Origin: a virus
IMG/VR virus record: IMGVR_UViG_3300025876_000005
Location: 136,643-176,489 of that record
DNA length: 39,847 nucleotides
Reading direction: 5' to 3' (one strand)
This document shows positions 459 to 15,903 of this stretch, piece by piece. The translations under genes were made by a program, and so were the position numbers. The first letter of the stretch is position 1. Every line of letters begins with the position of its first letter. The notes under the pieces were generated by a model. It was not told the DNA's origin, did no database searches, and saw nothing but the letters and a program-made list of their open reading frames with translations.

Positions 459-510
459 TGCAAGAAAGTTTTTCAGTGTCAAATATTCTTATTATATTTG
501 CACTGCAATA
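459..510 (+). promoter_or_regulatory. Early (host Bacteroidota sigma) promoter
   Basis: TATATTTG at 493-500 matches TAnnTTTG -7 element; one of 7 near-identical copies. Confidence 0.7.
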
Positions 511-519
511 AACAAAATG

Positions 520-536
520 GTTCTTTGACATATTGG
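520..536 (+). promoter_or_regulatory. boxA-like antitermination site
   Basis: GTTCTTTGACATATTGG just downstream of a promoter; repeated at 2423. Confidence 0.65.
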
Positions 537-552
537 TAAAATTAAGAAAATG

Positions 553-918: not shown

Positions 919-920
919 CA

Positions 921-1040
921 AGCTGTTCTGCATCAGAAGTGCTGGTTAGTGAAACACCTAATCGATGAGCCCATCAAAATGTGAGGTTAGAGCTGAAATA
1001 ACCTACCGCGTTATCTATAACGTAGCTATCGGATATAGTT
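921..1040 (+). ncRNA. Structured RNA candidate (string of hairpins)
   Basis: TTCTG/CAGAA, GGTTAG/CTAATC, GATG/CATC, AGGTTA/TAACCT, CGTTAT/ATAACG; two TGAAA loops. Confidence 0.4.
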
Positions 1041-1061
1041 TTAAAGAAAAAGCTCTCTTAT

Positions 1062-2295: not shown

Positions 2296-2369
2296 GGCGA
2301 AGTACCCAAGTGGTCTAAGGGAGCGGATTGCAACCCCGTTATTCGTTGGTTCGAATCCAACCTTCGCCT
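2296..2369 (+). tRNA. tRNA-Cys(GCA)
   Basis: GGCGAAG/CTTCGCC-T, loop TT-GCA-AC, U discriminator. Confidence 0.93.
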
Positions 2370-2374
2370 CAAAT

Positions 2375-2439
2375 GAAACAAAGAATTAAGAATGTTATAT
2401 AATCAACGTTATTAAAACAATAGCTCTTTGACATATTGG
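2375..2439 (+). promoter_or_regulatory. GAAAC-type promoter followed by boxA-like site (2423-2439)
   Basis: GAAAC-N17-ATATAA then GCTCTTTGACATATTGG. Confidence 0.65.
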
Positions 2440-2456
2440 TATATTAAGAAACAGTA

Positions 2457-2517
2457 AGAGTGCTTACAGCAAATTTACAAACATTTGACTTTTATTCAAA
2501 CACGTTTACGCACTCTG
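2457..2517 (+). ncRNA. Armless tRNA-like mini-RNA 1 (Lys TTT anticodon loop)
   Basis: AGAGTGC/GCACTCT-G 7-bp stem, TTACAGCAAATTT, TTTGA-CTTTTAT-TCAAA. Confidence 0.65.
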
Positions 2518-2526
2518 GTCTTTTTA

Positions 2527-2583
2527 AGGATGCTTCCAGCAAATTTAACTTATACAATTAGGAAGTAAACAAGCAGCATCCTG
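2527..2583 (+). ncRNA. Armless tRNA-like mini-RNA 2 (possible TAG loop)
   Basis: AGGATGC/GCATCCT-G 7-bp stem, TTCCAGCAAATTT, TAC-AATTAGGAA-GTA. Confidence 0.55.
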
Positions 2584-2591
2584 TTATATTT

Positions 2592-2665
2592 GGGGGTATA
2601 GCTCAGTTGGCTAGAGCACTTGCCTTGCACGCAAGGGGTCGTGGGTTCGAATCCCTCTACCTCCA
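2592..2665 (+). tRNA. tRNA-Ala(TGC)
   Basis: GGGGGTA/TACCTCC with G3:U70, loop CT-TGC-AC. Confidence 0.95.
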
Positions 2666-2700
2666 CTAACTACCGTTTCCATAAACAAAACGATAAAATT

Positions 2701-3087
2701 ATGGAACAATTAATTACATTTGTTCTAGGTGTTCTTTCAGTGGTTGCAGTCGCAGCTGTTGTGAGAGTGTTTGGGATGAAGAAGACAGTTGCCTTGATGA
2801 TCGATGATCGGATAGACGACGTAACACAAGAACTACATGGTCGAATAGACATGGTAGAACGAGAACTAGAAGAGGTTGATAATAGGCTATATGAATATAT
2901 AGATCAGCTACACAGTAAACACGATGAAGATGTGGATAAGATTTATTCTTACATTGATTCAAGAACGGACAAAATGGCAGACGGCACTGCTAAACATATT
3001 GCCGATATAAACGCTAGATTTAATGACAATACAGCGTTTGTAGATCTACTTTCGCATAGAATAGAAGATCTAGAAAGTAAGTCATAA
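2701..3087 (+). CDS. Membrane-anchored coiled-coil protein embedded in tRNA array
   Basis: Start at ATG2701 (listed 2620 start overlaps tRNA-Ala); N-terminal hydrophobic helix then acidic heptads. Confidence 0.75.
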   Translation: MEQLITFVLGVLSVVAVAAVVRVFGMKKTVALMIDDRIDDVTQELHGRIDMVERELEEVDNRLYEYIDQLHSKHDEDVDKIYSYIDSRTDKMADGTAKHIADINARFNDNTAFVDLLSHRIEDLESKS

Positions 3088-3523: not shown

Positions 3524-3574
3524 CAATTTATACCAATATGTCTTGAAACATAACCTTAATTGGTTATATAAAGA

Positions 3575-3804
3575 ACGGTTCTTGAAACAGTAATACACAA
3601 AAGCTGTGAATAGAATTTTACCGAGGGTTTAGGAATGGCTCCAGAGCAGAGCGTCACAATTGTCCCTATAAACAAAAGACGTAGATGCTTGGTTAGTAGG
3701 CAGAGTGAGCAATGACTGCCGATTTACCCTAAAAATGTTCTAGTGGGAAACCGGTTCCCTGTGAAAATCAAACTAAATTCAGGGCCTCACGACGGCGAGG
3801 CGGC
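3575..3804 (+). ncRNA. About 230-nt structured RNA candidate with own promoter (3545-3571) and terminator
   Basis: No ORF of 60 aa or more; hairpins CGTC/GACG, GGCAG/CTGCC, CCCTG/CAGGG, GCCTC/GAGGC. Confidence 0.5.
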
Positions 3805-3842
3805 AAGGAGAGTTCGGTTCGGTAAACTGGCTCTCCTTTTTT
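3805..3842 (+). terminator. Intrinsic terminator ending RNA array
   Basis: AAGGAGAG/CTCTCCTT plus T-run. Confidence 0.8.
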
Positions 3843-3894
3843 ATGTTTGAAACTTTGTCTAAATTTAGCATAAAACAGTTAAACAACTTTAAAG

Positions 3895-4832: not shown

Positions 4833-5141
4833 ATGAAATCAAAATGGTTTTTTGGCTGGGAGAACATTAAATGGTTCATCCGTGAAATTAGAAGCTTATA
4901 TAGCGGTGAAGATTCTTTCTTCTCAAAGAAAAGAATTGAGTCTGGGATAGCATTTATTGTTGGCCAATGGGGTATGATCTATTTCTTAACTAAGAACATC
5001 AACTCTTTGACAGCTTCAGATATTGTACTATGGGCTGGTGTAGAGTTTGCAATCGCGGGCTATATGGTTAATGCGATCCAGAAGGAGAAGAAAGAGAATG
5101 CTAAGACTCCAAAAGAGTTCTTAGAGGAGAACGAAGACTAA
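4833..5141 (+). CDS. Small two-TM membrane protein
   Basis: Two hydrophobic segments, charged tail; GATATATA motif upstream. Confidence 0.65.
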   Translation: MKSKWFFGWENIKWFIREIRSLYSGEDSFFSKKRIESGIAFIVGQWGMIYFLTKNINSLTASDIVLWAGVEFAIAGYMVNAIQKEKKENAKTPKEFLEENED

Positions 5142-14172: not shown

Positions 14173-14414
14173 TGCTAACGTATTGTATAAAATGCGTTGA
14201 GGAACGAAATGAATTTTATATGGTGTTATGCACCGTTTAATACTTAAAATAATGAATGAAGAAATTAAAAAACTTAGTTGCACCACAAGACAAAAACAAA
14301 TTCTACAAATAATCTACGAATACAATGAAGGTTGGAGGGATGCACAAAGCATTGAAAAGGATTTAGGTAAATTGTTTTTGGATAAAAGACATAAGCCTAA
14401 AAATGGTGCATAAC
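14173..14414 (+). mobile_element. attC-like hairpin plus integron-like gene cassette remnant
   Basis: TGCTAAC..TATAAAAT/ATTTTATA..GTTATGC; cassette ends GTTATGCACCGTTT / AAATGGTGCATAAC. Confidence 0.6.
14252..14413 (+). CDS. Small cassette-borne hypothetical protein
   Basis: Stop TAA lies inside the GCATAAC box. Confidence 0.55.
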   Translation: MNEEIKKLSCTTRQKQILQIIYEYNEGWRDAQSIEKDLGKLFLDKRHKPKNGA

Positions 14415-14533
14415 GGACGAGTGTATGACAAGTGCCAACACAGAACTTAATTAAAAAAAGAACCCAACGATTCTCTACATACCAGATAGTTTAATGTAGA
14501 AACAAAACCTAAGATCAGCATAAAAAGACTAAG

Positions 14534-15220
14534 ATGAGAATAACATTTATTTCCGACACGCACACCAAACACCGACAGCTAGATCTGCCGGGTGGAGACC
14601 TCCTAATTCATGCTGGAGACATTATGAATAGCGGTTATAGCGCGTATGAAGTCACAGACTTCTGTAAGTGGTTTGAGGGTCAAGACTATGATGTCTCCGC
14701 TTTTATTGCCGGAAACCACGACCGTCTGTTTGAGGATGAACCTGAAAAAGTGGCTGAGATCGTCAATTCATATGGAGTTGACTATATGCAGGACAATGTT
14801 TTTGAGTATGGTCTTTTTCCGGATGAAATGGTTAAGATCTATGGCAGTCCTTGGCAGCCTGAATTTTATCATTGGGCTTTTAATCTACCCAGATGTGGTG
14901 AAGAGTTGGCCAAAGTTTGGAATGATATACCAGAAGATGTTGACATCTTAGTAACTCACGGGCCTCCACAAGGACATTTAGACATAAGTGGACCTCCATA
15001 TAATGAAGGTGATCTAGGCTGTGAGATCCTAAGGGTTCGAGTAGATAAGATTAAGCCAAAGATCCACGTGTTTGGTCACATTCACGGCGGCTATGGCTAT
15101 AAGTTTCATGAAGGTACGCATTTTATCAACGCAGCTGTACTAAATGAAAGGTACGTACAAGTAAATGAACCAATCACAGTAGACTGGGACCCAGTAACAA
15201 ACGAAATAGAATTTTTATGA
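14534..15220 (+). CDS. Calcineurin-like metallophosphoesterase (MPPED/239FB-like)
   Basis: SDTH, HAGD, AGNHD, THGPP, HVFGHIH. Confidence 0.92.
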   Translation: MRITFISDTHTKHRQLDLPGGDLLIHAGDIMNSGYSAYEVTDFCKWFEGQDYDVSAFIAGNHDRLFEDEPEKVAEIVNSYGVDYMQDNVFEYGLFPDEMVKIYGSPWQPEFYHWAFNLPRCGEELAKVWNDIPEDVDILVTHGPPQGHLDISGPPYNEGDLGCEILRVRVDKIKPKIHVFGHIHGGYGYKFHEGTHFINAAVLNERYVQVNEPITVDWDPVTNEIEFL

Positions 15221-15903
15221 AGTACATAAGCATAGACATAGAGACAACTGGATTAGACCCAGAGAAATGTCAAGTCTTAAGTATCGGTGCAGTTATTGAA
15301 GACACCAACGATATTAAACCACTAGCAGATCTGCCAACATTCCACGGCGTAGTTTTGCCAAACAGAATTGAAGGCGATCCTTATGCTATCAATCTGAACA
15401 GAGACCTGCTTCAGACGATCGTGCAGTATCAAACAGCACAGGATCAAGATGAGAAGAATGACATCGTGCAGATGACTGGCATGAAGTTCTATAAGAAAGA
15501 AGAGATCGTTGAAGCCTTTTATTACTGGTTAGCTGAAAATGGTTTTGTAGAGTTTAACGATATAAATTCTGGTGGTTATGCTAAGATGGAGAACGGTAAA
15601 ATGTTGCCTATGATTACTAACAAGACTAAGCCGATCCATATCACAGCGGCTGGTAAAAACTTCGGCACGTTTGACCTTAAGTTCTTAGAGAAGATGCCTC
15701 GCTGGAAACAGCTAATCAAAGTACGTCAGCGTATTTTAGACCCAAGCATAATCTATACTGAATGGAAAGAGGACGAGAGCTTGCCGGGATTAGGACTTTG
15801 TAAGAAGAGAGCTGGTTTACCAGAAGAGGTTGCGCACGACGCAGTGAAAGATGCACAAGATGTAATCTTACTCTTAAGAAAGGAATATAATCCAGGTTAC
15901 TAA
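15217..15903 (+). CDS. DEDDh 3'-5' exonuclease
   Basis: IDIETTG, GKN..FD..FL, HDA..DA. Confidence 0.88.
   Translation: MKYISIDIETTGLDPEKCQVLSIGAVIEDTNDIKPLADLPTFHGVVLPNRIEGDPYAINLNRDLLQTIVQYQTAQDQDEKNDIVQMTGMKFYKKEEIVEAFYYWLAENGFVEFNDINSGGYAKMENGKMLPMITNKTKPIHITAAGKNFGTFDLKFLEKMPRWKQLIKVRQRILDPSIIYTEWKEDESLPGLGLCKKRAGLPEEVAHDAVKDAQDVILLLRKEYNPGY

Follow-up and report, generated by a model that had tools for sequence, protein, structure and literature searches.

YrlA RNA is built on a tRNA body that is opened at its anticodon end (Chen et al., 2014, PMC4201824; Rfam RF02553), and in the Thermus phage phiLo a Ro60 protein occurs together with the RNAs Yrl1 and Yrl2 (PMC12135203). In the Class I RNAs of Dictyostelium, a 6-base-pair (bp) stem joins the two ends of the molecule (Kjellin et al., 2021, PMC7919456). 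These RNAs were reported to be confined to Dictyostelia, to have an RRM protein as partner and to possess a promoter element of their own (PMC7919456). Here we compare with these systems two tandem units of about 60 nucleotides (nt), unit 1 (2457..2517, plus strand) and unit 2 (2527..2583, plus strand), which lie in a cluster of phage tRNA genes. Both were found in the window, a stretch of 39,847 nt covering positions 136,643 to 176,489 of the IMG/VR virus record IMGVR_UViG_3300025876_000005; the whole record is 176 kilobases (kb) long and is estimated to be 59% complete. The two units are real members of a conserved RNA family, not chance structures, and are extra gene copies of this small RNA. 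They are probably Y-RNA-like partners of a Ro60-like protein of the DUF2828 family, expressed from the tRNA operon.

Each unit is closed by a perfect 7-bp stem. In unit 1, AGAGTGC (2457-2463) pairs with GCACTCT (2510-2516), and in unit 2, AGGATGC (2527-2533) pairs with GCATCCT (2576-2582), and between these stems pairs 3 and 4 have changed in a compensatory way. An unpaired G follows each stem (2517 and 2583). TTACAGCAAATTTA in unit 1 and TTCCAGCAAATTTA in unit 2 abut the 5′ arms (RNA form UUACAGCAAAUUUA or UUCCAGCAAAUUUA, that is UU(A/C)CAGCAAA). This single-stranded motif, which together with the stem is called the handle here, occupies 2464..2473 in unit 1 (UUACAGCAAA, plus strand, with CAGCAA at 2467-2472) and 2534-2543 in unit 2 (plus strand), directly after the 5′ arm. 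Inside unit 1, UUUGA-CUUUUAU-UCAAA (2484..2500, plus strand) forms a hairpin in which 5 bp enclose the 7-nt loop CUUUUAU and which resembles the anticodon arm of tRNA-Lys(UUU); the interior of unit 2 is variable. Neither unit encodes CCA, and the 3′ side reads G followed by GTC or TTA. The original prediction had described the closing stems with their compensatory changes, the unpaired 3′ G, the motif after the 5′ arm and the absence of D and T arms, all of which could be read directly in both units. It had also expected tRNA finders to miss them, and neither unit was called by ARAGORN in standard or mitochondrial/armless mode, or by the Rfam tRNA model. The folding energies of units 1 and 2 were unremarkable (z -1.8 and -2.7), and the case for the units was therefore built on comparison across genomes.

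Units were identified with a simple pattern in which G and five more bases are followed by three bases, CAGCAA and a complementary arm. When it was applied to 80 loci with a DUF2828 gene, one or two units were found beside the gene in almost all of them. The arms had many different sequences, and each pair was mutually complementary. A covariance model, R1, was then built from an alignment of 30 units, all from other contigs and none from the source genome. In this alignment the 7-bp stem was 98-99% paired with both-side changes in six of the seven pairs, and the U and CAGCAA of the handle were invariant. The outermost stem pair, which lay outside the selection rule, also showed both-side changes. 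The second pair was G:C in all 45 distinct family rows, and both window units fit this pattern. Such stem covariation suggests selection at the RNA level, and the compensatory changes together with the conserved single-stranded motifs are signs of a folded RNA. The interiors closed by the same handle ranged from 21 to about 240 nt.

Searching the whole 176-kb genome with R1 returned exactly three short units: unit 2 with 42.6 bits (E 4e-8), unit 1 with 31.0 bits over the full model length (E 5e-5), and a unit at 15723-15785 of the genome contig (C1) with 40.7 bits, beside the DUF2828 gene. The next best match inside the window scored 10.7 bits. Rfam contained no family for the units, and no literature describing RNAs with this handle, or anything relevant on DUF2828 and a link between Class I RNA and Ro60, was found. 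The CAGCAA-handle RNA family is widespread and apparently unpublished. A 15-base exact handle pattern run over IMG/VR gave mostly chance matches, with true units in only three of the loci later tested. When orthologous units were sought through relatives of the neighbouring 2-hydroxyacid dehydrogenase and of the open reading frame (ORF) at 2701-3087, none was found.

The DUF2828/DUF7788 gene, assigned by Pfam, encodes 481 amino acids and is located at genome positions 14231-15676 (L121:2231-3676), with genes for a MarC-family protein and a T4 Rnl1-type RNA ligase upstream. CAGCAAA occurs in tandem again at 15733 and 15800, directly after the DUF2828 gene. The first copy belongs to the 63-nt unit detected by R1 (C1:15723-15785); the second belongs to a 243-nt unit with the same ends, located by regular-expression scan at C1:15790-16032 (L121:3790-4032). 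Both read A-G-stem, UACAGCAAAC, complementary arm, G. The 243-nt unit folded no better than shuffled sequences (z -0.5), and no T-loop motif was seen in it. At least five AAGCA repeats were present in this unit, and a second AAGCAA lay inside many short units; these interior repeats may be a second binding motif.

The coupling between gene and RNA was consistent across phages. Relatives of the DUF2828 protein numbered 243 in IMG/VR, and matches were present in 706 GenBank phage records, many of which annotate the protein as "RNA-binding protein" or "Ro-like". Over the 80 DUF2828 loci (686 kb, both strands searched), all 76 R1 matches lay on the strand of the gene and adjoined it. In about 800 kb of other loci, R1 matched only recognisable homologues and three further contigs, each of which carried a DUF2828 gene; these were the three contigs whose true units had been found by the motif alone. 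The earlier suggestion that a protein binds the CAGCAAA element gains support through this genomic coupling of the handle to a gene for a protein with a vWA domain and a predicted Ro60 fold.

The fold of this protein was examined with an AlphaFold2 model built from an alignment of 30 sequences (mean pLDDT 77.7). In a Foldseek comparison with the PDB, the 13 best matches of the model were all Ro60/TROVE structures over the full length, including Ro60 of Thermus phage phiLo (E 1.7e-8), Deinococcus Rsr, and Xenopus and human Ro60; the next matches were isolated vWA domains. The vWA metal-site motif D-x-S-x-S was invariant in the protein alignment. Pfam assigned DUF2828 and DUF7788 only, and not the TROVE domain (PF05731), and a profile search against the PDB gave a weak sequence match to TROVE chains (E 0.04). 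The sequence link to TROVE is thus barely visible, and we therefore regard the phage protein as having the Ro60 fold but belonging to another Pfam family, with a predicted helical-repeat plus vWA architecture.

In other large contigs with a DUF2828 gene, additional units were found far from the gene, several of them in tRNA arrays. The distance to neighbouring tRNAs was 3-8 nt in L215, L216, L071 and a Felix O1-like phage. In L215 a unit is flanked by tRNA-Gln and tRNA-Tyr at distances of 3 and 5 nt, in L216 a unit adjoins tRNA-Met genes, and in L071 a unit lies 5 nt past tRNA-Ser in an array of 21 tRNAs. The Felix O1-like phage UAB_Phi87 has its DUF2828 gene at the head of the tRNA cluster and units between the tRNAs, and Vibrio phage KVP40 and Cronobacter phage S13 likewise contain units. 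The window units are arranged in the same way. The cluster contains 25 phage tRNA genes, 19 of them within the window, which begins inside the cluster. The upstream neighbour of the units is tRNA-Cys (2296..2370, plus strand), and tRNA-Ala (2592..2666, plus strand) begins 8 nt past unit 2, both being called by ARAGORN and Rfam. Such tRNA-like spacing supports, without proving, co-transcription and processing of the units with tRNAs. Two hypothetical ORFs annotated in UAB_Phi87, Phi87_09 and Phi87_08 (L278:4285-4461 and 4852-5109), lie on the strand opposite to handle units and may be mis-annotations.

We were particularly interested in the hairpin of unit 1. In the locus L268 of a close relative, the order tRNA-Cys, unit 1, unit 2, tRNA-Ala is the same as in the window. 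Unit 1 there equals the window unit except for one nucleotide in the loop (CUUUAAU). Unit 2 has an identical handle and a diverged interior, from which the ATTAGGA stretch is gone. Hairpins of the unit 1 type were also found within tRNA arrays in L215/L225 (UCAAA-UUUUUAC-UUUGA) and in L071a (UUCAA-CUUUUAA-UUGAA). Across these four variants, three of the five pairs were altered on both sides, U33 and A37 were present in all, and UUU was kept in three. A 5-bp stem with a YUUUUAN loop occurred in three of the 62 distinct short units, as compared with 0.009 expected on average from shuffled interiors and a maximum of one in 2000 trials. The three units may share ancestry, and this result is therefore to be read as conservation, not independent origin. 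The tRNA-Lys loops of these phages are all CUUUUAA, on stems richer in GC. That unit 1 carries a conserved mimic of the tRNA-Lys-type anticodon arm is well supported by these comparisons. A second helix flanking the hairpin was apparent in single folds and was rejected, since its register varies between lineages in the alignment.

The original prediction had also seen a weaker arm with an ATTAGGA, Leu-like loop in unit 2. The stretch is present in the window sequence; its loss from the orthologous L268 unit leaves the Leu-like loop unsupported. Likewise, the U33/purine-37 pattern expected of homologous loops holds for unit 1 and fails for unit 2 and its closest ortholog. Units whose handle is of the unit 2 type, located immediately before the DUF2828 gene in L012 and L071, contain CUUUA-CUUGAAA-UGAAG, the loop of which is exactly the anticodon loop of tRNA-Ser(UGA).

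A different part of a tRNA was found in an extra 144-nt unit of L268 (L268:332-475, minus strand). This CAGCAA-handle unit lies between the repeated leader element described below and unit 1, and has no counterpart at the corresponding position of the window (about 2452). The first half of its interior corresponds to the 3′ anticodon-stem strand, variable arm, T arm and 3′ acceptor strand; after an 18-nt loop, the second half corresponds to the 5′ acceptor strand, D arm and 5′ anticodon-stem strand. With a placeholder loop joining the halves in tRNA order, ARAGORN recognised a complete type II cloverleaf. By its sequence, then, the interior reads as a type II tRNA body in circular permutation, with the anticodon loop as the point of opening. 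Among distinct long units, 10 of 44 contained a T-loop motif, compared with 2.9% of random 240-mers.

With these modules in hand, the likeness to Ro60 systems can be specified. As in Ro60/Y RNA pairs, a predicted helical-repeat plus vWA ring-type protein is encoded beside small RNAs that have a variable module and a stem formed between their 5′ and 3′ ends. Like YrlA, the 144-nt unit contains a tRNA body whose opening lies at the anticodon end, and an RNA-repair enzyme is encoded nearby, as in Ro60 systems (here the Rnl1-type ligase). However, the phage protein belongs to DUF2828/DUF7788 rather than TROVE, and the RNA handle is a plain 7-bp stem with single-stranded CAGCAA, where Y/YrlA RNAs have a bulged helix or the GNCGAA motif. 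None of the units was matched by the Rfam YrlA model, whose only weak matches fell on true tRNAs. Modules that mimic an anticodon arm alone were not mentioned in the Y RNA literature examined.

The units were also compared with three other kinds of small RNA. Like Class I RNA of Dictyostelium, they are about 60 nt long (about 42-65); a 5′ G and a 3′ CUG are common to both kinds, as are a short stem that joins the ends, a variable interior and a conserved unpaired (C)CUUACAGCAA, containing ACAGCAA, right after the 5′ arm. The Rfam model RF01414, the only one to match the units, aligned over its full length (positions 1-56) with 28.4 bits for unit 1, 21.8 for unit 2 and 28.8 for the gene-side unit, all below the gathering score of 41.5; for the units of 16 further loci, neither this model at its gathering threshold nor the YrlA and tRNA models gave anything qualifying. 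This striking likeness may reflect either homology or convergence. An ESM Atlas look-up returned DUF2828 clusters from viruses and bacteria only and was uninformative on dictyostelids. Species 1 and 2 of T4 (rnaC and rnaD) are similarly non-tRNA small stable RNAs in a phage tRNA operon, abutting tRNAs, but they have no CAGCAA handle and the best R1 score in the T4 tRNA region was 9.5 bits. They were rejected as family members and are analogous in position only. The armless mitochondrial tRNAs of nematodes and mites share the 7-bp terminal stem and the lack of D and T arms, and have a counterpart of the 5-bp/7-nt arm of unit 1; unlike them, the units have long connectors with a conserved motif, and elsewhere the same ends enclose unrelated interiors.

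From these associations we infer how the units may be made, bound and used. Units in a tRNA operon would be co-transcribed with the tRNAs and excised by tRNA-processing nucleases, and the Ro60-like protein would grip the CAGCAA handle, in a partnership like that of Ro60 with Y RNAs. Function would then reside in the variable interior. That of unit 1, which mimics the tRNA-Lys anticodon arm, could tether or divert an enzyme that recognises such arms, candidates being an anticodon nuclease, a repair enzyme or a modification enzyme; the interior of unit 2 is a diverged A-rich module with no conserved hairpin. The identical handles and diverged unit 2 interiors of the window and L268 were counted as support for this division into handle and variable module. 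For the mimic of unit 1 alone, a role as decoy or tether for anticodon-directed enzymes is plausible and is put forward tentatively.

Several observations weigh against this explanation. The coupling is genomic co-occurrence and not contact, the window units lie 123 kb from the DUF2828 gene, and the unit-bearing contigs of the closest relatives (G008 and G009, which are 8-12% fragments) show no DUF2828 gene. The training rule for R1 demanded CAGCAA and a perfect 6-bp stem, so that pairing in the training rows is partly by construction. The loop CUUUAAU of L268 unit 1 means that the "anticodon" UUU of unit 1 is not strictly kept. Moreover, 57 of the 62 short units have no anticodon-like hairpin and most interiors are A-rich, and tRNA mimicry is therefore a trait of subfamilies, not of the whole family.

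Other explanations were weighed against the same evidence. The units could act as free-standing anticodon-arm decoys for host nucleases, with the handle as a mere clamp and no protein partner. PrrC, RloC or PARIS-type nucleases attack tRNA-Lys, and in T4 Rnl1 repairs the tRNA-Lys cut by PrrC. The Rnl1-type ligase encoded in the same genome, the placement of units among phage tRNAs, the tRNA-Ser(UGA) loop in relatives of unit 2, and the hairpin of unit 1 homologues, with its 5-bp/7-nt form, U33, A37 and mostly UUU, all agree with this proposal. Yet the conserved part is the handle and not the hairpin, which has no counterpart in most short units and no conserved equivalent in unit 2, and a mere clamp needs neither an invariant single-stranded CAGCAA nor strict linkage to one gene. 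We consider this proposal unlikely. The units could instead be cis-acting or DNA-level elements, such as hairpins that serve processing or termination in the tRNA operon, or small mobile repeat cassettes that produce no trans-acting RNA. Their tight packing between tRNAs fits such elements, as does the extra L268 unit, which is inserted exactly between the repeated leader and unit 1 and which shows a cassette-like gain and loss of units. Against a role in termination, no U tract follows the stems, no terminator was found by a scan of the unit region, and the long-range stems enclose 45-nt A-rich loops. The complete strand agreement with the protein gene, and the compensatory stem changes with conserved single-stranded motifs, which indicate folded RNA, also argue against elements of this kind, and they appear quite improbable.

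The original prediction had offered armless or minimal tRNAs, in which the 7-bp stem would be an acceptor stem and the unpaired G a discriminator, with CCA added and the RNA charged for decoding or for entering translation. The terminal stem with one unpaired base does look like an acceptor end, and the arm of unit 1 like an anticodon arm. However, the mitochondrial mode of ARAGORN gave nothing, a threshold of 80% produced only off-register and mostly opposite-strand calls, and the Rfam tRNA model had no match. No tRNA has anything like the 20-nt 5′ connector with its invariant CAGCAA, and interiors as short as 21 nt and as long as about 240 nt share this handle, while unit 2 lacks a conserved anticodon arm. 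With no tRNA finder accepting the units and most family members devoid of an anticodon-like hairpin, this reading was rejected and is thought extremely improbable. A Y-RNA-like partnership with the DUF2828 protein remains our preferred explanation.

A repeated element precedes the units. The 18-mer CTCTTTGACATATTGGTA occurs at 2424..2441 and 521-538 (plus strand), two copies as compared with 0.06 expected by chance, and is the core of a repeat of about 45 nt (window 495-545 and 2400-2455) ahead of two sections of the tRNA cluster. The element is identical in L268 and may serve as a leader or in antitermination or processing. The original prediction had called it boxA and had proposed a promoter at 2375; a simple sigma-70 scan yielded none around this position, and none beside the repeated element either.

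The surrounding tRNA region showed other features. Stretches of 100-300 nt in and after the array (window 920-1060, 1146-1246, 1688-1845, 2163-2295 and 3540-3850) have no tRNA, Rfam match or convincing ORF and may contain further non-coding RNAs; the stretch 2163-2295 falls within a block 89% identical to L268. ARAGORN called a 94-nt tRNA-Gly(tcc) at 1348-1441 and an 84-nt tRNA-Tyr at 1447-1530, which were absent from the Rfam tRNA matches at the gathering score. The tRNA-Gly exceeds the usual length and may contain an insert. Just upstream of the window, in the tRNA cluster, a permuted tmRNA (RF04321) was matched at L122:1912-2086 (genome 135912-136086) with 67.6 bits against a gathering score of 47. 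In S13, a 121-nt "tRNA-Ser" and a 113-nt "tRNA-OTHER" are annotated directly past the DUF2828 gene (L279:4357-4599, that is NC_028773 132703-132945). Both appear to be tRNA bodies in which the anticodon region is swapped for an insert consisting of a small hairpin and UAUUCAGCA, and a canonical handle unit begins at about L279:4615.

A broader proposal can be made, though we regard it as speculative and rather doubtful. The family might form a second branch of Ro60/Y RNA systems that displays tRNA parts, either an anticodon arm alone (Lys, Ser) or a tRNA body alone, and that diverts or senses host anticodon-loop nucleases together with the Rnl1-type ligase; the amoebal Class I RNAs would then be its eukaryotic members.

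For the window itself, the exotic reading as armless tRNAs gives way to a better supported one. The handle RNA genes are invisible to current annotation and are in places overwritten by spurious small ORFs. If the pairing with the DUF2828 protein is real, a ribonucleoprotein akin to Ro60/Y RNA has gone unannotated in hundreds of phages, among them laboratory models such as Felix O1-like phages, KVP40, myophages of Listeria and Staphylococcus, and mycobacteriophages. The mimicry of tRNA parts connects this family to the arms race between phages and bacterial defence over tRNA cleavage, and the family gives a lead on the binding partners of the amoebal Class I RNAs.
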